A stretch of DNA of 41,564 bases. Source: Candidatus Peribacterales bacterium. Lineage in GTDB: Bacteria; Patescibacteriota; Gracilibacteria; Peribacterales; Peribacteraceae. The stretch covers positions 1 to 41,564 of the forward strand of contig DATDWC010000079.1 of assembly GCA_035289805.1 (NCBI GenBank), written 5' to 3'. Under the pieces are notes generated by a model. The model was not told the DNA's origin. It ran no database searches and was given only the letters and a program-made list of their open reading frames with translations. Below, piece after piece: positions 18,144 to 29,674 of this stretch (the stretch's first letter is position 1; every line of letters starts with the position of its first letter). Made by a program: the position numbers and the translations under genes.

Positions 18144-20294
<2,151 letters not shown>

Positions 20295-20364
20295 TCAGAA
20301 TTGTAGGGAAAGGGGCTAAAGGAAGCAAGAATCTTAGGCAAAGCGCCTTGTCATTTTTGGGGTG

Positions 20365-20393
20365 TTTACTATAAAACATAAATGTGGTATAAT
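20365..20393 (+). promoter_or_regulatory. Putative extended -10 promoter for the Cys-rich protein gene
   Basis: TTTACT (20365-20370), a 17 nt spacer containing TGg, then TATAAT (20388-20393), about 28 nt upstream of the ATG at 20421. Confidence 0.4.
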
Positions 20394-20420
20394 ATATGCA
20401 TTCATCTCCACACAAACATT

Positions 20421-21308
20421 ATGAAGCATTCCAAGAATCTCCTTTGGATAGGCTGTGCACTTTTTGCAGGGATTGGAATCCCTCTTGCCATCTTTTTTCA
20501 GGAAACCGGGTCGTTTCAAGCTTCGGTAACTCTCGCATGCCCTACAACGCCCATTGATACAATATTGCCACTCCCGCCTGCACCCCCGGCATGTAAAACA
20601 GAAACGGTTTCCATTGTGTGCAACAGTCCGCTCAACGAAACAGTACAGTTAGCCGAGAAAGAAATAATGAACAAATTCGAACCAATGAAGAAGGTAAAAG
20701 TTTCCCAAGCTTGGGGATGGGGATTCAAGAGCGGAGGATTAAATCCCAAAGCACAAGCTGAAGGTATAGCTAAAAATGCCGCCCAAGCGGAAGCCTGTCC
20801 CATTGCAGAGACACAAAAAACAATCAATTGCAAAACACAGAATGGATGTGAAGAGCAATCACATAACTGTATCCCGCCACCGCTGTCTCAATGTACTATT
20901 GTGTTTTCGGCGGCAGTTCAGGGTGGATGGGGGGCAATCGCTACCTGTCCGACTGCCAAAGTAGTGCTCAAGTGTAAAACGAATCAGACAGCACTGGATA
21001 ATCTTGCGCAAATGAGAGCCTTGGAACTGGGACATGTACTGGAAGAAATATGCATGAAGAAGCCTAATTCGTGCGAAAACGACTACGACGCTCCTTGTAT
21101 AACGAAGAGTAAGAGTATTACCTTTATAGAAGGAAAACCAGAAGTCACCAATACGCCTGCAAGTCTTACGAATCGTCAGGCAAAATATTGCGGCAGGTGC
21201 AACATGAAAATGACATGTTCAACAATGCCGAGTATAGGAGATGCAACTCCACCCACCGGCAATTCCGGTCCCCCTACAACGCCGATAATGCCACCAACGA
21301 GGAAATAA
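20421..21308 (+). CDS. Secreted/anchored cysteine-rich protein with Pro/Thr-rich C-terminus
   Basis: Start set at the ATG at 20421, which gives a signal/anchor (MKHSKNLLWIGCALFAGIGIPLAIFF). About 20 Cys are spread through the mature part. No family recognised. Confidence 0.7.
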   Translation: MKHSKNLLWIGCALFAGIGIPLAIFFQETGSFQASVTLACPTTPIDTILPLPPAPPACKTETVSIVCNSPLNETVQLAEKEIMNKFEPMKKVKVSQAWGWGFKSGGLNPKAQAEGIAKNAAQAEACPIAETQKTINCKTQNGCEEQSHNCIPPPLSQCTIVFSAAVQGGWGAIATCPTAKVVLKCKTNQTALDNLAQMRALELGHVLEEICMKKPNSCENDYDAPCITKSKSITFIEGKPEVTNTPASLTNRQAKYCGRCNMKMTCSTMPSIGDATPPTGNSGPPTTPIMPPTRK

Positions 21309-21324
21309 AGAAATTTGTAAAAAC

Positions 21325-21350
21325 GAGCGAGAAACCCTCGCTCTTTTTTT
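21325..21350 (+). terminator. Rho-independent terminator
   Basis: Stem gagcgag (21325-21331), loop aaacc, stem ctcgctc (21337-21343), then T7. Lies 17 nt after the stop at 21308. Confidence 0.7.
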
Positions 21351-21467
21351 ATGCCAGTTTTTCGGAAACATGCGCCCACCTTCGCCAAAGCGGAGTTTAT
21401 CCTGAGCTTGTCGAAGGAGCGGGCAGGTCTGCCGGATGAGTTCCAGCAGTATCCCCTTGGGATATTC

Positions 21468-21511
21468 TTGCTTTTCACCAGAATGTTATCTATAATGATT
21501 TGGTAGATAAC
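21468..21511 (+). promoter_or_regulatory. Sigma70-like promoter with overlapping palindromic operator upstream of vapBC
   Basis: TTGCTT (21468-21473), 17 nt, TATAAT (21491-21496). The 8 bp inverted repeat GTTATCTA (21485-21492) / TAGATAAC (21504-21511) straddles the -10. Confidence 0.5.
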
Positions 21512-21522
21512 ATCTTGCCCCT

Positions 21523-21789
21523 ATGAAGATCTCCTCCACCGAGTTCCAGCAGCGCGTCGGCTACTACCTCTCCCTCGTCGAAAAGGGAGTGGAGGTCATC
21601 ATCGAACGGCAAAAGCCCGGCGAATCGCTGTTTGTCCTTTCACTGAAAATTCCAAAAGAGTCCAAAGCGTCTGCTGAACAAGCGGATCGGGCAAAGAGGG
21701 AAGAGTTTCTGCGCGAACTGCGTTCGGTGCGCGCAACATTCCGGAAGGGAGAAGACTGCGTGGATTTCCAACGGCGCGTACGTCAATGA
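21523..21789 (+). CDS. vapB: Type II antitoxin (Phd/YefM-like N-terminus), partner of the PIN toxin
   Basis: 88 aa. The N-terminal MKISSTEFQQRVGYYLSLVEKGVEVIIER resembles the Phd/YefM antitoxin fold. The stop overlaps the toxin start (ATGA). Confidence 0.75.
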   Translation: MKISSTEFQQRVGYYLSLVEKGVEVIIERQKPGESLFVLSLKIPKESKASAEQADRAKREEFLRELRSVRATFRKGEDCVDFQRRVRQ

Positions 21790-22166
21790 ACATTCTCCTC
21801 GACACCAGCTTTCTCTCCGCATTACATAACGATAATGATGTATATCACGAAGAGGCAACGGAACAGTTTTTTGCAGCACAGGGAACGCAAACGATTATCC
21901 CGACAATTGTCATGGCAGAATGTCTCATGGGAGACATTGATGGGAAACATATGATGACAGTCTGCAAAGAACTTTGCGGTTCGTTCCTGCCACTCACAGA
22001 ACGGGAGCTGCAGGAAGTCGCACGCCTACCAGCAAAAACACGCAAGGGACTTAAAGCCAACGATTGCCTCATTCTTGTCTATACACGCCTGTACCATGCA
22101 GATCTCTATACATTCGATCAGAAGTTAAAGAAAGTATACGACGATCTTCAGGCTAGTTTTTCATAA
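21786..22166 (+). CDS. vapC: PIN-domain ribonuclease toxin VapC
   Basis: 126 aa. N-terminal ILLDTSFL with the conserved Asp, plus further acidic residues (E, ND, D) spaced as in PIN domains. Confidence 0.85.
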   Translation: MNILLDTSFLSALHNDNDVYHEEATEQFFAAQGTQTIIPTIVMAECLMGDIDGKHMMTVCKELCGSFLPLTERELQEVARLPAKTRKGLKANDCLILVYTRLYHADLYTFDQKLKKVYDDLQASFS

Positions 22167-23437
22167 TCATGAGCTAAAAGTTGTGCATTAATCTGCCGAA
22201 TAAGTTCCAGGACAACGCCCACCACGATGATCATTCCAGAGCCCGAAATGAGGAGATCCTGGGAGCTCAAGGACGAGTACTTGGTGAAGATGAGCGGAAC
22301 GATGGCGATAATGCCGAGGAACACTCCGCCCCAGAGGTTGAGGCGGTTACTCGTCTTTGCGAGGACTTCCGCTGTGGATTTTCCCGGCCGGATGCCGGGG
22401 ATAAACCCGCCGCGCTTCTGAATATCCTCCGCAATCTGCTCCGGACGGAACGTGACGGAGACGTAGAAGTACGTGAAGACGAGCACGAGGAGGAAGTACG
22501 CCGTTATGTAGAGCGTGGAGGGATTGTTAGCATTGAGCTCGGTATTGATGAAGTTCACGACCCCCGTAAAACGCGGCGCTGTCTGCAAAAACTGCGCAAT
22601 GATCCCCGGAAAGGTAATGAGGGAAATCGCAAAGATGATCGGAATCATTCCTGCCTGGTTAATGCGGATCGGGATTCCTCCCTGCACCCCTCTTCCCGCA
22701 CCCTGGTTTGCATAGGTAATAGGGATGAGGCGATGCGCCTCTGTGAAGAGCACCACACAAATCAAAAGACCAACGGAGAGAATCGAGAAGAAAATAAACG
22801 GGCCCTGCTTTCCCGCTCCCGCCACAAACATGTTACTGAGTGTGGAAGGAATACTGGAGACTATGCCAGTGAAGATGATGAGCGAAATCCCATTCCCAAT
22901 CCCCTTTTCCGTCATCACTTCTCCAAGCCACATGAGGAAGAGTGCTCCCGCAGCAACAATCGTCATCGGACCAAGAACGCCGGGGAACGAGGTATCAATC
23001 AAGCGACCGCCAAGTTGGGCTGCGCCGGAGTTGAGGAGTAGGAGAAATCCGTAGCTCTGGAGGAATGCGAGCGGGAAGGTGATGTACCTCGTGTAGCGGT
23101 TAATTCTCTGTTGGCCTTGCTGCCCTTCTTTTGCCAGAGCTTCCAGCTTCGGGAAGATGACTGTACAGAGCTGGAGAATGATCGAGGCATTGATGTACGG
23201 AGAGAGACCAAGGAGCACAATCGAGAAGTTATCAATGGCACCACCCGTGAGCGCTGCAAAAACTCCCAGTGCTCCACCTGTGCCGCGACTCCCGAGGAAG
23301 TTTCGCAGAGCCGTTTCATCCGCACCGGGTACAGGGATATGGGCTACGATGCGGTAGAGAACGAGGAGCCCGAGCGTTAGGAGAATGCGCTTCCGCAGAT
23401 CTTCGGACTTCCAGAGTTGGTGGAGATAGCGAAACAT
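22148..23437 (-). CDS. secY: Preprotein translocase subunit SecY
   Basis: 429 aa, 10-TM SecY pattern (LGLSPYINASIILQL, MWLGE, GISLIIF). The 3' end overlaps the vapC 3' end by 19 nt. Confidence 0.95.
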   Translation of the reverse strand: MFRYLHQLWKSEDLRKRILLTLGLLVLYRIVAHIPVPGADETALRNFLGSRGTGGALGVFAALTGGAIDNFSIVLLGLSPYINASIILQLCTVIFPKLEALAKEGQQGQQRINRYTRYITFPLAFLQSYGFLLLLNSGAAQLGGRLIDTSFPGVLGPMTIVAAGALFLMWLGEVMTEKGIGNGISLIIFTGIVSSIPSTLSNMFVAGAGKQGPFIFFSILSVGLLICVVLFTEAHRLIPITYANQGAGRGVQGGIPIRINQAGMIPIIFAISLITFPGIIAQFLQTAPRFTGVVNFINTELNANNPSTLYITAYFLLVLVFTYFYVSVTFRPEQIAEDIQKRGGFIPGIRPGKSTAEVLAKTSNRLNLWGGVFLGIIAIVPLIFTKYSSLSSQDLLISGSGMIIVVGVVLELIRQINAQLLAHDYEKLA

Positions 23438-23440
23438 TGC

Positions 23441-23878
23441 TTAGACGATCGTCACGGAACCCCCGGCTTTCACAATGGCTTCGCGCGCGCTCCTGCTTGC
23501 AGCATTCACCGTGAGATTAAATTTCTTGGTGAGCGTCCCCATCCCCAGGATTTTCACGGGGAGCGCGCCCTTCACTAATCTCGCTTCCTTCAGCTTTTCG
23601 ACATCGTAGGTTCCTCCCTCCAGAGCTTCCTCGAGCACTTCCAGATTCAAAACTGCAAACTCCTCGCGTGTAGGATTCCTGAATCCGCCGAGCTTCGGCT
23701 GTCTGCGAATGAGGGGGACTTGCCCGCCTTCGAACCCAATAGGCTTCCCACGGCCCGTACGCGCTTGCTCCCCCTTGCAGCCAGTGCCACAGAAGGTCCC
23801 TCGACCAGAGCCATTGCCACGGCCGACACGACGAGCATGCTTGCGAGAGCCAGAATTCGGTTTGAGCGTATGAAGCAT
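23441..23878 (-). CDS. rplO: 50S ribosomal protein L15
   Basis: MLHTLKPNSGSRKHARRVGRGNGSGRG is the typical uL15 N-terminus. The ORF track's 27-codon 5' extension was trimmed. Confidence 0.9.
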   Translation of the reverse strand: MLHTLKPNSGSRKHARRVGRGNGSGRGTFCGTGCKGEQARTGRGKPIGFEGGQVPLIRRQPKLGGFRNPTREEFAVLNLEVLEEALEGGTYDVEKLKEARLVKGALPVKILGMGTLTKKFNLTVNAASRSAREAIVKAGGSVTIV

Positions 23879-24008
23879 AGATCCGCCAAAGGGTAGCAGG
23901 GAGAATACGGCATGAAAAGCCAAATACGGTCTTTTCTGGAGGCAATGGAGATTATTCAAGGGCTCTAAAAGCGCATCCCCACGTGTTTTTAAAAATCACG
24001 ACCGTAGA

Positions 24009-24878
24009 CTACGGGCGGGACGGGGAACTTGAAGATCGAGAGAAGATGGTATTGATGAGAAATTGGAAGAAATTAAGTACAGCATTGGGAGAAGAACTAG
24101 TGGAAGCAGGAGCAGAAGAGGAGGAGGTGGAAGGAGAAGTGGAACTGGAGTGGGTGGAAGAAGATGTAGAGGAGGGATAGAGACTCACACAATCACAATT
24201 ACGCGAACCATCAATGTCATTCCTTACGATCTCGCAGACGCGGGGATTGTAGAAATCAATAATCATATTATCGCATTCCCCTCCACAACTGAGGGGTTCT
24301 CCTAATGCGTTAGTCGCTCCACATATTGCATCATCCCTATCCACACAACTGCAGCCGCTCAGCCCAGAGTGTTGGCATACTTGATTTCCTGGGCAAGAGC
24401 CTCCGCAGTATAACCCCCCAGGCAGATCACCACAGGCGGCATCGATCTCACATAAACATTCCGGCTCACCACTTGTATAGTATCGAGACAATCTGCAAGT
24501 TTGCCCGGTGGGACATGCCCCTCCACAGGAGAGAGGATTCCCCTGCTGATCCGTACCGGTACGGCGACAACCTCCAGCAGGAAGTTCATCGCAGTAATAT
24601 GTTCCTGCATCATTCCCACAGGAACCTCCTGTGCTTGGATTATCACCCTCACCGCAATTCCCGGGGTACGTGGTCGTAGTCAGAATTTGCCCATTCGCTA
24701 CGCAATTGCAGCTGCATTCATTGGCTTCGACAGAAGAAGAATAGGACGATGCAGGTGTCATTTCTGCAAAGGGAATAGAAAAACGTTCGGTGATAGCTGC
24801 TCCACAGAAAAATCCAATGATAAAAGCGAAGAACAATCCCACAAAAAATGTTATTGGTTTGGCGTGAGGGAGAGACAT
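24009..24878 (-). CDS. Membrane-anchored/secreted cysteine-rich repeat protein with Ser-rich tail
   Basis: 289 aa. N-terminal TM (ITFFVGLFFAFIIGFFCGAAI), three CGGxC(P)xxQxC-like modules (PLSCGGACPTGQTC, GLYCGGSCPGNQVC, PLSCGGECDN) and a poly-Ser/Thr C-terminus. Confidence 0.7.
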   Translation of the reverse strand: MSLPHAKPITFFVGLFFAFIIGFFCGAAITERFSIPFAEMTPASSYSSSVEANECSCNCVANGQILTTTTYPGNCGEGDNPSTGGSCGNDAGTYYCDELPAGGCRRTGTDQQGNPLSCGGACPTGQTCRLSRYYTSGEPECLCEIDAACGDLPGGLYCGGSCPGNQVCQHSGLSGCSCVDRDDAICGATNALGEPLSCGGECDNMIIDFYNPRVCEIVRNDIDGSRNCDCVSLYPSSTSSSTHSSSTSPSTSSSSAPASTSSSPNAVLNFFQFLINTIFSRSSSSPSRP

Positions 24879-24940
24879 GCAGAAAAGTATTGCAGGATGC
24901 CTTTCAAAGAACTAAAAAGAGTGATTGCCAGAGATGAGAA

Positions 24941-25450
24941 TTATAGTGCAGCTAAGAGTTGCCCAAATTCTTCCGCGACCTCCGGTCCATTTGCCGTCAC
25001 AATATCGCCATCCCGTGTAACGCTCTCCCCGGTATACGTAGCCCCCTCCGATTGAAGAAGTTTTGCCTGTACTCCTCCGTTATCCCATACCGTCGCTCGC
25101 TTTCCCTTAAGAACCCCAGCACGTGCAAGAATCGTCGGTGCGATGCAAATAGCACCGAGCTTCTTCCCATGAGCGAGGGCATCGCGAGCGATCCTCTTTG
25201 CATCTTCATCCTGAGCAAGTGCTGCTGCACCAGGTCCCCCGATGAACGCGATGATATCGAACTCTTTGATATCCACATCTCGTAACGCGAGATCAACCAA
25301 GGCAGATCCACCAAACTTTCCCAGACACTCCCCGGCTTCGGTACTCGCAATCATGATCTCGTATCCTGCAGACTCGAGGCCGTTTCGTGTCCCTGCGTAC
25401 TCCTTATCTTGGTATCCCTGCTGTGCAAGAATGATAAGAACACGGTTCAT
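24941..25450 (-). CDS. DJ-1/PfpI family protein
   Basis: Flavodoxin-like fold with the nucleophile-elbow Cys in the AICIAPTILA context. The ATG at 25450 (MNRVLIIL) is preferred over the GTG at 25468. Confidence 0.85.
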   Translation of the reverse strand: MNRVLIILAQQGYQDKEYAGTRNGLESAGYEIMIASTEAGECLGKFGGSALVDLALRDVDIKEFDIIAFIGGPGAAALAQDEDAKRIARDALAHGKKLGAICIAPTILARAGVLKGKRATVWDNGGVQAKLLQSEGATYTGESVTRDGDIVTANGPEVAEEFGQLLAAL

Positions 25451-25475
25451 ATACACAGTATACGACACAACATCC

Positions 25476-26006
25476 TTACCCCCTTACTTCCTTACCCCCT
25501 TCCTCCACCTTCTCCTTCGGTTTCCTCAACTTCGTGAGTGCTTGCATCGCAGTCTGCGCATTCACGACGATGTTACTCGATCCGTAGCGCTTACTTAGAA
25601 CATTCTTCACTCCAGCAAGATCGAAGATGGGGCGCAGAGCCCCCCCTGCGATGATGCCGGTTCCGGCCATAGCCGGGAGTAATCGAATGCGTGCCGCCTT
25701 GAATTTATAGTTCACTTCGTGAGGAATGGTGTCCTTTACGATCGGCACATTGATCATGTGACGCTTTGCATCGGAGACAGCTTTCTGCACTGCTCCCTGC
25801 ACTTCGGCGCTCTTCCCGATCCCAAGACCCACTCTCCCCTTGCGGTTCCCAATGATCACCGTGGCGCGGAATCGCATGCGGCGGCCGCCCTTCACCACAC
25901 GAGTCACGCGCGCGATTTGCAGAACATGCTCATCGTATTCCTTGGGATCACGCTCACGCCGTCCACCTCGATCCTTGCGCCGGTCGTCCTTGGATGATTT
26001 AGCCAT
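25476..26006 (-). CDS. rpsE: 30S ribosomal protein S5
   Basis: The uS5 core (VTRVVKGGRRMRFRATVIIGNRKGRVGLGIGKS) and position in the cluster. Confidence 0.95.
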   Translation of the reverse strand: MAKSSKDDRRKDRGGRRERDPKEYDEHVLQIARVTRVVKGGRRMRFRATVIIGNRKGRVGLGIGKSAEVQGAVQKAVSDAKRHMINVPIVKDTIPHEVNYKFKAARIRLLPAMAGTGIIAGGALRPIFDLAGVKNVLSKRYGSSNIVVNAQTAMQALTKLRKPKEKVEEGGKEVRG

Positions 26007-26033
26007 AGAGCAATGGATAATGGAAAATGAAAA

Positions 26034-26378
26034 TTAAAACTGGAGACCACCTTCGCGCGCTGCATCGGCAAGAGCCTTCACGCGACCATGATATTTATAT
26101 CCTGCACGATCAAAGACAATCGAACTGATCTTCTCTTTTTTTGCTTTCTCTGCAATGAGCTTACCGAGTTTTCCTGCGCCTTCGACCGTGTGCTTACCCT
26201 TCGCCTCTTTGAGAGAAGCTGCAGCGAGAGTCTTCCCTGCAACATCATCGATGAGCTGTACGTACATCCCCCGGAGCGAGCGATGCACCGCGAGGCGCGG
26301 ACGCTCCGCTGTTCCCTTAATGCGTGCACGGATGCGAATCTTTCTGCGGAGCCGATGCTGGAGCTTGGAGGGGGGCAT
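26034..26378 (-). CDS. rplR: 50S ribosomal protein L18
   Basis: [20 protein letters not shown] ... [27 protein letters not shown]. Confidence 0.95.
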
Positions 26379-26383
26379 GAGGG

Positions 26384-26944
26384 TTATGCGGCTGTGCCAC
26401 CCTTCACGGCAGCCTTACCGACTTTGCGCGGAACGAATTCACCCACGTAGCGGATCCCCTTCCCCTTGTAGGGCTCAGGTTCCCTGTAGCGACGGATATC
26501 AGCGGCAGTCTGTCCAACCTTCGCCTTATCAATACCCGTGATGAGGAGGATCTGTTTGTTCTCTGGATCTTGCTGGATATCCACACCCTCCGGAGCTTTG
26601 AATTCAATCGGGTGTGAGAATCCAAGATTCAACGTCACAGATTTCCCCTTCGCTTGCGCTTTGTACCCAACACCAATGATCTCCAGCTTTTTCGTATACC
26701 CCGTATTCACTCCTTCGATCATATTGGCAATGAGTTGCCGCGTGAGGCCATGGCGCGCGCGGCCTGCACGCTCATCGTTCTTACGCTCGATCACCACAGA
26801 GCTCCCTTCTATCTTCACCCCTACCTCGGGGAGGAGTGCAAGCTTGAGTTCTCCCTTCGGCCCTTTTGTAATCACCGTGGAGCCCTTCACTTCTACAGTG
26901 ACTCCTGAAGGAATGCCGACGGGTTTCTTTCCGATGCGAGACAT
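26384..26944 (-). CDS. rplF: 50S ribosomal protein L6
   Basis: [19 protein letters not shown] ... GVGYKA ... LGFSHP ... YKGKGIRY. Confidence 0.95.
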
Positions 26945-26973
26945 AGGAATTGAAAATTGAGAATTGAAAATTA

Positions 26974-27360
26974 TCAGCTGACAGTACAGAGAACCTCTCC
27001 TCCGACGCCCTGTTTCTTTGCTTCGCGATCGGAGAGGACACCATTGCTTGTGGTGAGAACAGAAATACCATATCCATGGAGCACCGGACGGAGTGTCGCC
27101 TTACCACCGTAGAGCCGTCGGCCGGGTTTGCTGATACGCTTCAACTCGAGCTTGGGATATTCGAGGCTAAAAGTAATCGTGATGAGTTTCTCTATCCCCT
27201 CCCCTGCCACACTCACATCGGCGATAAATCCTTCGCGCTTCAGCACATCACAAACTTCTTCTTTATGCCGTGACCAGGGACACGTGCAGAACCCTGAGCG
27301 CGCATGCTGAGCATTGCGCATTCTCGTGAGCATATCGCCAATGGGATCCGTCACAGGCAT
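26974..27360 (-). CDS. rpsH: 30S ribosomal protein S8
   Basis: DPIGDMLTRMRNA ... GFI ... GGEVLCTV, plus synteny. Confidence 0.95.
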   Translation of the reverse strand: MPVTDPIGDMLTRMRNAQHARSGFCTCPWSRHKEEVCDVLKREGFIADVSVAGEGIEKLITITFSLEYPKLELKRISKPGRRLYGGKATLRPVLHGYGISVLTTSNGVLSDREAKKQGVGGEVLCTVS

Positions 27361-27370
27361 AGAGAGAGGG

Positions 27371-27595
27371 TTACCAGGATGCTTTTTTTACACCGGGCAC
27401 TTCCCCGTTTGCCGCGAGTTCGCGGAAACAGATGCGGCAGATGCCGAAGAAACCAAGGTACCCGCGCGAACGTCCGCAGAGCTGGCAACGATTATAGACG
27501 CGGGTCGAAAACTTTGGTTTCCGTCCAGCTTGCAGTGCCTTTTCGTACTGCTCTTTACGTCGCCTCTGCTTATTGACAAGTGCGGTGCGGGCCAT
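27371..27595 (-). CDS. rpsN: 30S ribosomal protein S14, zinc-binding (type Z-like)
   Basis: [13 protein letters not shown] ... [25 protein letters not shown] with CxxC-x12-CxxC. The ORF track 5' extension was trimmed to the ATG at 27595. Confidence 0.9.
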
Positions 27596-27718
27596 AGGGA
27601 AAAGAAATGAAGAGTTCGTTAGCCGGGGCAGTATAGGGAAATGGGAGGGGAAAGAAAACAGGAGAATCAACAGAAACACGAGAAAATTGGTCCCATTCCA
27701 CTTCTTTTTGAGGACCCA

Positions 27719-28303
27719 CTATTCCTTTATCTTCTTTGCTTCCTTGGCTTCCTTCTCCTTCCTAAACGGCACTTTCATCTCCTCGAAGAGTGCCCTAGCA
27801 CTTGCATCGTCCCCTGCGGTTGTTGCAATCGTGATCTCAAGACCAAAGAGGCGGGAGGCATCGGAGGGAGGGGCAACTTCCGGAAACACGGTGTGCTCCT
27901 TGAGTCCAACCGAATAGTTACCGTGACCATCCAAAGTAGAGGGAATACCACGGAAATCACGCACACGCGGGAGAGCGACATGCAGCAGCTTATCCAGAAA
28001 TGCTTCCATGCGCTTGCCACGGAGCGTGACCATAGCACCCACAATCAGGCCTTCGCGGATCTTAAAATTGCTGACCGCCTTACGTGCAGCGCGGAGGACC
28101 GGCTTCTGCCCCGTGATCTGCTTCAAGCTTTCGACGATGTACTCCTGCATCTCTTTGCTATCCATCTTGGACCGGTTGATACCCACATTCACTACCACCT
28201 TCGTGATCCGCGGAAGTGCGTGCGTGTTCGCTTTCTTCAGACGCGTCTTGAGCGATTCTGCAATAGGACCACGCAGCCGATCATGGAGAGTCATAAAAGC
28301 CAT
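27719..28303 (-). CDS. rplE: 50S ribosomal protein L5
   Basis: PRITKVVVNVG ... ITGQKPV ... FKIREG ... VTLRG ... RDFRG ... GNYSVGLKE. Confidence 0.95.
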   Translation of the reverse strand: MAFMTLHDRLRGPIAESLKTRLKKANTHALPRITKVVVNVGINRSKMDSKEMQEYIVESLKQITGQKPVLRAARKAVSNFKIREGLIVGAMVTLRGKRMEAFLDKLLHVALPRVRDFRGIPSTLDGHGNYSVGLKEHTVFPEVAPPSDASRLFGLEITIATTAGDDASARALFEEMKVPFRKEKEAKEAKKIKE

Positions 28304-28707
28304 TACTTGGTATCAGAGGAAGCACTCTTCTTTGCTTTTGATTCCTTTTTCTCCTTACTTGCCCCCGCATCCTCCTCCACAAGCTTCTTCAACTTCCGAC
28401 CGGAAGCTAATTCCTCTCCACTCACCTTGGCGATGCGTTCCTTCTTCCCCTCTTTGAGACGGTACCCGATACGGGTGGGCTTCTTCGTTTTTGGATCAAG
28501 GACCATGACATTACTCACGTGGAGTGATGCTTCGTAGCGCACCACTCGCCCTGGAGCTTGGACGGTTTTCCGAATATGACGCGTGCGCATGTTGATTCCA
28601 GCAACGACCACACGGTCCTGCTCGCGCAGAGTCCGCAGGATATGACCTGTTTTCCCTCTATCTTTGCCGGTAATGATGAGGACGAGATCGCCCGTATGGA
28701 GTTTCAT
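28303..28707 (-). CDS. rplX: 50S ribosomal protein L24 (with K/E-rich C-terminal extension)
   Basis: KOW motif ([16 protein letters not shown]) and synteny. Confidence 0.93.
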
Positions 28708-29072
28708 AGAACATCAGGAGCAAGGGAGACGACTTTCTGGAATCCTTTGAGACGCAATTCACGGGCAACAGGACCAAACACGCGCGTGCCCTTTGGCTCC
28801 CCATCACCACCAATGATGACACAAGCGTTTTCATCAAATCGAATACTGCTCCCATCACTGCGGCGAACCGTATCCTTCGTGCGGACAATCACTGCTTTCT
28901 CCACTGCTTTCTTCTTCACAATGCCGCGCGGTGCTGCATTTTTGACTGCCACAACAATGACATCTCCAACATGAGCATAGCGACGCCGGGTGCCCCCGAG
29001 CACCTTGACGCACTGGACAAGCTTTGCACCAGTGTTATCAGCCACAGTGAGGAATGATTCCTGCTGAATCAT
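28704..29072 (-). CDS. rplN: 50S ribosomal protein L14
   Basis: [17 protein letters not shown] ... the canonical uL14 N-terminus. Confidence 0.96.
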
Positions 29073-29374
29073 GGGGAGGGGGGGGATTTTCTGCCGGAGG
29101 CCTCTGCGAGTTCCTGCTCGAGCGATCCATCTTTGAGGAAACCCGAAGCAAGGACATTGAGCACCTTGAAGTGCTTGCGCTTACTCAAGGGGCGGCACTC
29201 ACCGATTTCCACCGTATCACCTTCCCTCACAAGAATCCCGCTCGTATCCGCGAGGAACTTTTTACTCACAGGGTAGCGCTTTTTGTAGATTGGATGCGTG
29301 ATGTAGCGTGTCACCTCCACCGTGACAGTGTTCTGCATCTTTGCCGAGGTAACGGTGCCTTTCTTCGTACGCAT
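29069..29374 (-). CDS. rpsQ: 30S ribosomal protein S17
   Basis: [18 protein letters not shown] ... HPIYKKR ... [18 protein letters not shown]. Confidence 0.94.
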
Positions 29375-29416
29375 GGAGGGGAATGAAAGAGAAGAGTATT
29401 GAGAAAAGGAATTTGC

Positions 29417-29674
29417 TTATGCAGCGCGCTTTGGAGGCACTATGACGGGAGCAGGCATGGTAAGTGCAGAAGCATCCCTCTGCAAGAAGGAAAGAACAGT
29501 AAACATACGTGCGAGCTGGTGTTTAGCCTCGCGTAGCTTGTGCGTCCCCTTCTCCACACCTGCACGAATGCTGTGCTCAAGCGTCGCAATGGTATGGCGC
29601 TGCTCGCCAATTTCCTTCTGCAGATCAGCTTTCTGCATTTTGAGGAGCTCGGGCATGGTGAGAACTTTGGTCAT
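29417..29674 (-). CDS. rpmC: 50S ribosomal protein L29
   Basis: Helical uL29 pattern (ELLKMQKADLQKEI ... REAKHQLARM) between rplP and rpsQ. Confidence 0.85.
   Translation of the reverse strand: MTKVLTMPELLKMQKADLQKEIGEQRHTIATLEHSIRAGVEKGTHKLREAKHQLARMFTVLSFLQRDASALTMPAPVIVPPKRAA

Follow-up and report, generated by a model that had tools for sequence, protein, structure and literature searches.

In this work, we have analysed the ribosomal protein gene cluster carried by a 41,564-nt stretch of DNA (the window; contig DATDWC010000079.1 of assembly GCA_035289805.1) from a groundwater bacterium of the Peribacteraceae, a family within the Candidate Phyla Radiation (CPR), with a tiny genome. The canonical bacterial S10-spc-alpha cluster, of the E. 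coli/B. subtilis type, reads ...L18-S5-L30-L15-SecY-Adk-Map..., and the S10-spc string ranks with the best-conserved bacterial gene orders and is a routine block of syntenic markers for CPR phylogeny. Read along its minus strand, the window shows the order L6-L18-S5-DJ-1/PfpI-(289-amino-acid Cys-rich open reading frame (ORF))-L15-SecY. Our results show that the DJ-1/PfpI gene (DJ-1 in what follows) behind rpsE, the gene of S5, is a trait of the lineage and not peculiar to the genome of the window. We consider it probable that this is the Peribacteraceae version of the S10-spc cluster, in which rpmD (L30) is missing, DJ-1 follows rpsE and would be a co-expressed accessory enzyme dealing with electrophiles or thiols, a variable slot comes next, filled here by an ORFan (the Cys-rich ORF), and L15-SecY would be expressed from a promoter of its own.

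The window agrees with the canonical cluster in the order and strand of L6-L18-S5 and of L15-SecY, and S5 and L15 flank the position of rpmD, but a DJ-1/PfpI gene and an ORFan stand in that place, so that no uninterrupted S5-L30-L15-SecY string exists. S5, L15 and SecY remain co-directional and in order across an S5-to-L15 gap of 1.6 kb, and the arrangement found is that of a split spc cluster of the Peribacteraceae type, S5-DJ1 / variable slot / L15-SecY. The draft genome is a metagenome-assembled genome (MAG) of 970 kb in 102 contigs, 84% complete with 2.2% contamination, and the standard code reads it cleanly. Searched in six frames with the L30 family PF00327, the whole draft gave no match at E<=10, and the same search matched 14/14 control genomes. 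A preliminary description of the stretch had reported L30 as missing, and this search bears it out; the overlooked rpmD in the interval, which could have overturned that claim, was not found. L30 absence is general in CPR bacteria, and its absence from this 84%-complete draft fits a CPR-wide loss.

DJ-1 behind rpsE as a trait of the lineage

A DJ-1 homologue is present in 14 of 24 genomes of the same family; in all 14, S5 is found just upstream of it in the same orientation, and L15 follows wherever the examined flank extends to it. The synteny comparison in close genomes that the preliminary description had called for thus finds S5-DJ1 kept in 14/14 DJ-1-bearing family genomes, and, of the insertion which it had presented as an unusual feature, the DJ-1 gene turns out to be conserved after rpsE in most of the family and to occur in the cluster of three further families. 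For the locus search, our first alignment of relatives (19 DJ-1 homologues) was too diverse and a narrower one was used instead; the single DJ-1 protein of the window retrieved one distant match, and the loci recovered with the DJ-1 alignment were nearly all titled Candidatus Peribacteria, Peribacteraceae or Peregrinibacteria. The 83 loci measured comprise 80 family loci with DJ-1, the window and two loci of another family, f26. S5 is upstream of DJ-1 in 77 of them, and L15 downstream, on the same strand, in 70. Between S5 stop and DJ-1 start there are fewer than 150 nt in 47 of the 77 loci and fewer than 60 nt in 25; in the window this gap is 7 nt if DJ-1 starts at the GTG at 25468 (175 amino acids) and 25 nt if it starts at the ATG at 25450 (169 amino acids).

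Tight L6-L18-S5-DJ1-L15-SecY strings are found in G026 (family f3) and in G057 and G090 (family f26). In family f16, DJ-1 lies between rplT and rplO in the order TilS-IF3-L20-DJ1-L15-SecY, with S5 on another contig; here the break in the string falls upstream of DJ-1, with DJ1-L15-SecY fused to the infC-rplT operon (L134:1231-6355; L116, L117, L120, L121), a junction also seen in L123, L124, L132, L135, L136 and L139. Twelve other families of the class supplied 36 DJ-1 loci (three divergent f26 copies among them); no S5, L15 or SecY was found within ~4 kb of these, or near 75 DJ-1 loci from archaea and other bacteria outside the class.

For CPR genomes in general, S5 and L15 have been described as near neighbours (bioRxiv 10.1101/2022.01.07.475337). 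The window conforms to that pattern in its absence of L30, its sister species G001 has S5 beside L15, and L15 starts directly after S5 in seven other families of the class (f2, f8, f10, f11, f12, f14 and f15), but in the window, in most Peribacteraceae and in f3, f16 and f26, DJ-1, often with more genes, stands between them. The two-gene insert of the window departs from the published rule. In one CPR family as a whole, and in parts of three more, the L30 slot is home to a non-ribosomal enzyme, and the string is habitually broken there; the general statement of S5/L15 adjacency in CPR is corrected accordingly, a point relevant to binning and to marker extraction. In the literature we found no paper on DJ-1/PfpI in the ribosomal clusters of Peribacteria or CPR, and the founding Peribacteria genome paper makes no mention of DJ-1 in the ribosomal cluster (PMC4736985).

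Two side observations concern the wider family of DJ-1 proteins. Members of the same DJ-1 branch, 50-57% identical to the f16 copies, are frequent in Hadarchaeota, DPANN archaea, Methanophagales and Omnitrophota, in non-ribosomal contexts, and they are also found in Acidobacteriota MAGs (loci L138 and L140-L211), a distribution that suggests an uncharacterised, anaerobe-associated subfamily with likely inter-domain transfer. In family f11 (L224-L226, that is G088, G156 and G240, and further f11 rows) the homologues carry 5-16 TGA codons in frame, give better alignments under code 25 and are not near ribosomal genes. TGA is recoded to Gly in Gracilibacteria and Absconditabacteria, and the f11 codons fit this known recoding.

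The variable slot between DJ-1 and rplO

From the DJ-1 stop to the L15 start there are 1062 nt in the window, at least 900 nt in 52 of the 70 loci in which L15 follows and fewer than 200 nt in 13. Of the 55 loci with a long slot, 46 have their largest ORF on the opposite strand; an SLH/CAP secreted protein, encoded on that strand, fills the slot in 35 of the 55 and a 126-amino-acid ACT-domain protein in 11, and family members that have no DJ-1 carry still other fillers between S5 and L15. The DJ-1-rplO interval is thus a rearrangement-prone slot, its content varying from genome to genome, and a place to seek lineage-specific surface proteins such as the ORFan of the window. The SLH/CAP filler has ~400 amino acids, a signal peptide, an SLH-like N-terminus ('YVTRAEAA') and a CAP/YkwD domain (PF00188, E 1.7e-19), and lies between DJ-1 and rplO, convergent to DJ-1, as a conserved gene of most Peribacteraceae (for example L041:4101-5324 on the minus strand, and 34 other family loci); sought in the genome of the window, from which it is absent, it gave only a marginal N-terminal match (E 6e-4).

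Because opposite-strand genes split the string at S5/L15 in most relatives, L15-SecY needs its own promoter in most of the family, and we regard it as probably a separate transcription unit. Co-transcription of DJ-1 with S5 is plausible from the spacing of the two genes. The preliminary description had placed both inserted genes within one co-expressed operon: the S5-DJ-1 half of that claim stays plausible at 7 or 25 nt, and the downstream half is probably wrong, since the slot in relatives holds mostly opposite-strand genes. Internal promoters, which it had suggested for the gaps of 62 and 130 nt, gained no support from consensus scans. The sole hit of the terminator scan in the window is a weak 5-bp hairpin at 24014-24002 followed by a T-run, after the stop of the Cys-rich ORF. 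The stop codon of DJ-1 is overlapped by a TATAAT hexamer (24940-24945), which is a lead only; the consensus promoter scan of that strand was empty. Neither spacer folds with a stability beyond that of shuffled sequence (z +0.94 for the 62-nt and z -0.8 for the 130-nt spacer), and no Rfam match was found in 21000-29500.

The ORFan that fills the slot in the window has an N-terminal membrane helix (approximately residues 8-33), an ectodomain with 24 Cys and a tail rich in Ser, Thr and Pro. The ectodomain is built of three tandem six-Cys modules of the form C..CGGxC..C..CxC, which are mutually similar at the protein level (z 3.2-7.3 against shuffles). Searches among 5.8 billion protein clusters and, with HMMER, among 1.84 billion representative proteins returned only the protein itself, and neither the genomes of 40 relatives nor the rest of its own genome gave a match. 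A single-sequence AlphaFold model gives a transmembrane helix and beta-hairpins at a mean predicted local distance difference test (pLDDT) score of 54, which is insufficient for a search by fold. The ORFan reads as a young or fast-evolving protein, predicted to be membrane-anchored, disulfide-rich and exposed at the surface. A second membrane-anchored Cys-rich ORFan, of 308 amino acids with a Pro/Thr-rich tail, lies on the plus strand of the window at 20382-21308; the two ORFans share no sequence similarity with each other.

Could the Cys-rich ORF be no gene at all, and the interval between DJ-1 and L15 a decayed spacer left open by chance? We judge this unlikely. The absence of homologues from every database searched and the low-confidence structure model would agree with it, as would its GC content at third codon positions (GC3) of 0.42, the lowest in the window (shared with the ORFan at 20382-21308), and a codon-usage score of -0.18 bits/codon that does not set its frame apart from the others (-0.17 to -0.22), the latter probably owing to the odd amino-acid make-up of the ORFan. 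Yet the frame is open for 870 nt with no rival long ORF clear of DJ-1, it starts with a strong hydrophobic helix, its three modules hold the six-Cys register, the number of ectodomain Cys is even, the identical ORF is found in an independent assembly, and the other ORFan of the window is of like style.

Active site and predicted role of the DJ-1 protein

The window protein belongs to the PF01965 family, with 118.8 bits against a gathering cut-off of 26.6 over residues 9-172. E17, G71-G72, C102 (in the motif AICIAP) and G155 are invariant in 19/19 homologues, and P156 nearly so; the nucleophile-elbow Cys, its partner Glu and the Gly-Gly oxyanion hole are therefore all in place. In a profile alignment with human DJ-1 (used for residue equivalence only), E17 corresponds to E18, G71-G72 to G74-G75, C102 to C106 and P156 to P158, and four positions are replaced: I103 for A107, W122 for H126, Q14 for E15 and S27 for R28. 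The residues essential for the hydrolysis of cyclic 3-phosphoglyceric anhydride (cPGA) are E15, E18, R28, G74, G75, C106, the A107 backbone and P158 (PMC12135873). As aligned, the catalytic core is kept and two substrate-positioning residues, the equivalents of E15 and R28, are not.

A profile of the 19 homologues matches PDB 4hcj (E 3.2e-35), PH1704/PfpI (E 3.5e-27), plant DJ-1D, YhbO and human DJ-1. The first of these, a structural-genomics entry named 'ThiJ/PfpI domain protein' that carries no functional assignment, is the closest solved relative over a full-length alignment, but it has Gly-Ser-Gly in place of the Cys-Ile-Ala of Peribacteria and thereby no nucleophile. Like the DJ-1/YajL clade, the window protein is small and single-domain (~170 amino acids) and has the superfamily fold (by profile match), the elbow Cys, the paired Glu, the Gly-Gly oxyanion hole and the Pro158 equivalent; it differs from that clade in the replacements just listed (Phe instead of Trp at His126 in f16) and in its ~25% identity to human DJ-1. 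With the PfpI/YhbO clade (Pyrococcus PH1704, E. coli YhbO) it shares its best curated model, TIGR01382, and its second-best PDB match, PH1704, but not the Cys-His dyad, as the residue after C102 is Ile (Ala in f16). Judged by its residues and model scores, it is a member of the superfamily and of neither curated subfamily.

Glyoxalase III and hydratase activities have been described for DJ-1 and YhbO, and cPGA hydrolase activity for DJ-1 and YajL (PMC10915168, PMC12135873, PMC13449665). YajL also enters into mixed disulfides with proteins of the ribosome (PMC4021431). By analogy, the function of the DJ-1 protein is probably the removal of reactive electrophiles, co-expressed with ribosomal proteins. 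We propose that the S10-spc transcript ends with DJ-1 as its final cistron, 7-25 nt behind rpsE, whereby the amount of DJ-1 would scale with ribosome synthesis, and that L15-SecY is driven from its own promoter, as is required in relatives with intervening convergent genes. The Cys102/Glu17/Gly71-Gly72 centre would destroy reactive electrophiles of fermentative glycolysis, candidates being alpha-oxoaldehydes or acylating species such as cPGA, or else shield protein thiols, and the enzyme would be a dispensable accessory rather than a component of the ribosome. Two ORFs with the VOC/glyoxalase fold, on another contig, speak neither for nor against a glyoxalase role. The proposal also offers a hint on DJ-1 biology: the branch is widespread in anaerobic bacteria and archaea, and its expression here appears tied to ribosome production, in cells that presumably depend on fermentative glycolysis.

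Several observations weigh against this proposal. The window protein has no His of either catalytic type (I103, W122) and no counterparts of human DJ-1 E15 and R28 (Q14, S27), and its scores are below the cut-offs of the curated models: 98.5 against 139.05 bits for TIGR01382 (PfpI), 70.4 against 131.25 for TIGR01383 (DJ-1 glyoxalase III) and, for NF040823, 74 against 330. Methylglyoxal synthase was not found in the draft genome. The co-transcription of S5 with DJ-1 and the separate promoter of L15-SecY are deduced from spacing and from relatives, and scans for the sigma-70 consensus and for intrinsic terminators, in the interval of the window and in two relatives, gave no excess over shuffles. 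The history of the locus adds a further difficulty: all cluster-linked DJ-1 copies can form one clade (approximately unbiased (AU) test, p 0.84), but the four host families that carry them are not one clade in the tree of L6+L18+S5 (458 columns, AU p 0.004; the four-family group was named post hoc, and the tree is weak in its deep branches). A single ancient insertion therefore needs several later losses or moves, and two scenarios remain for the deep history, one old insertion with later losses or moves, or several captures.

A bolder version of this idea, which we hold to be possible and rather unlikely, is that ribosomal operons (S5-DJ1-L15 or L20-DJ1-L15) already housed the enzyme when several Peregrinibacteria-type families had yet to split, and have kept it ever since as a dedicated guardian of translation. 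Made in step with ribosomal proteins, it would clear acylating or glycating electrophiles derived from glycolysis, or reverse thiol damage, with nascent ribosomal proteins and rRNA as its targets. If true, this would be a natural, genetically hard-wired link between DJ-1 and translation, of the kind debated for YajL and human DJ-1.

Inheritance of DJ-1, its loss and the soundness of the locus

The DJ-1 sequences cluster by taxonomic family in their tree, and the 37 Peribacteraceae rows, that of the window included, form one clade with 99% support. DJ-1 distances follow the distances of S5+L6+L18 (Mantel r 0.56, 0/999 permutations as high). The window copy diverges from its relatives by 0.38-0.46 and the ribosomal proteins by 0.30-0.33, in proportion, so DJ-1 is neither closer to nor farther from relatives than the ribosomal proteins predict. 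The phylogeny had been suggested as a check on recent acquisition of DJ-1, and since it follows families and has the window copy inside the 99% clade, such an acquisition is unsupported.

DJ-1 is also dispensable and has been lost repeatedly, as it is missing from 12 of 30 family genomes of 98-100% completeness and from the sister species. The latter, G001, shares 82% identity with the window over L6+L18+S5 (S5 alone 80%, SecY 92.5%), and the two group together with 100/100 support; the whole genome of G001 lacks DJ-1, its S5 and L15 are separated by 78 nt, and G020 is similar. Alignment of the window spacers with the S5-L15 spacer of G001 showed no deletion remnant.

These data bear on the idea that DJ-1 and the Cys-rich gene came together, in this genome only, as a small island recently inserted at the junction left by L30 loss. 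The direct adjacency of S5 and L15 in G001 would suit it, as would a GC3 of 0.47 in DJ-1 and 0.42 in the Cys-rich gene against 0.53-0.64 in the flanking ribosomal genes, and a Cys-rich gene without relatives in any search. We find it very doubtful, because most of the family has DJ-1 in this very position, the window copy lies within the well-supported family clade with a divergence proportionate to that of the ribosomal proteins, and the state of G001 is read more simply as a loss of DJ-1. As to the Cys-rich gene by itself, a recent origin or acquisition is likely.

Another explanation is that DJ-1 is a ribosome-associated factor or a stand-in for L30, recruited to its slot to act on or in the ribosome. 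DJ-1 lies exactly in the L30 slot in f3, in f26 and in 13 of 70 family loci, and it stays beside ribosomal genes after the rearrangement in f16 (L20-DJ1-L15); in E. coli, according to the summary and references given in PMC4021431, mixed disulfides link YajL to ribosomal proteins, and translation is defective in a yajL mutant. Against this, the same 12 near-complete family genomes and the sister species that lack DJ-1 also lack L30, which makes a structural role in the ribosome unlikely; in most families of the class S5 and L15 are neighbours, and DJ-1 is either located elsewhere or missing; the residues that are conserved belong to an enzyme active site; and the DJ-1 fold is unrelated to that of L30. 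This explanation is, in our opinion, highly improbable, and the accessory enzyme remains the reading we prefer.

An assembly artefact, with unrelated fragments joined at the S5/DJ-1 or Cys-rich/L15 junctions, could be imagined in so fragmented and slightly contaminated a MAG and from the composition dip within the S5-L15 interval, but it is hardly credible, since the separate Logan assembly of run SRR3989344 has a 3806-bp contig with S8-L6-L18-S5-DJ1-Cys-rich-L15(start) in identical order, and S5-DJ1 and DJ1...L15-SecY are syntenic across dozens of relatives. A chimeric contig, named in the preliminary description as what could refute it, is thus very unlikely, and the two co-directional non-ribosomal genes that it saw between rpsE and rplO are the same in the Logan contig. 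Its coordinates and both gap lengths were all found correct from ORFs, Pfam matches and reading of the sequence (Table 1).

Table 1. Features of the S10-spc region of the window, in minus-strand order
Feature	Position	Strand	Evidence or remark
rplF (L6)	26384-26944	-	ORF; tblastn synteny anchor; PF00347 on Logan contig
rplR (L18)	26034-26378	-	ORF; tblastn synteny anchor; PF00861 on Logan contig
rpsE (S5), last canonical gene ahead of the slot	25476-26006	-	PF00333, E 6.4e-26; PF03719, E 8.6e-20
DJ-1/PfpI gene in the L30 slot	24941-25468 (GTG) or 24941-25450 (ATG)	-	PF01965, E 2.6e-34
Spacer between DJ-1 and Cys-rich ORF, 62 nt	24879-24940	-	read from sequence
Cys-rich ORFan, 289 amino acids	24009-24878	-	no Pfam or NCBIfam match
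Spacer upstream of rplO, 130 nt	23879-24008	-	weak terminator-like hairpin (24014-24002), then T-run
rplO (L15)	23441-23878	-	PF00828, E 9.1e-16; homologues in relatives align from residue 1, MLHTLKP
secY, final gene of the cluster	22148-23437	-	PF00344, E 3.3e-94

At its far end, the ribosomal cluster of the window stops at secY, with no adk, map or infA after it, and is followed by a convergent vapBC-like pair, a further difference from the canonical cluster. The pair (21523-22166, plus strand) consists of an antitoxin-like ORF of 88 amino acids overlapping a PIN-domain ORF of 126 amino acids (PF01850, E 5.9e-12), and the 3' end of the PIN gene overlaps the 3' end of secY by 19 nt. A second variable slot is found here at the end of the cluster, between secY and gyrB (window 18144-23437, compared with G001 C12:41800-48400), where G001 carries a 288-amino-acid membrane-anchored protein and the window the vapBC-like pair together with the 308-amino-acid ORFan.

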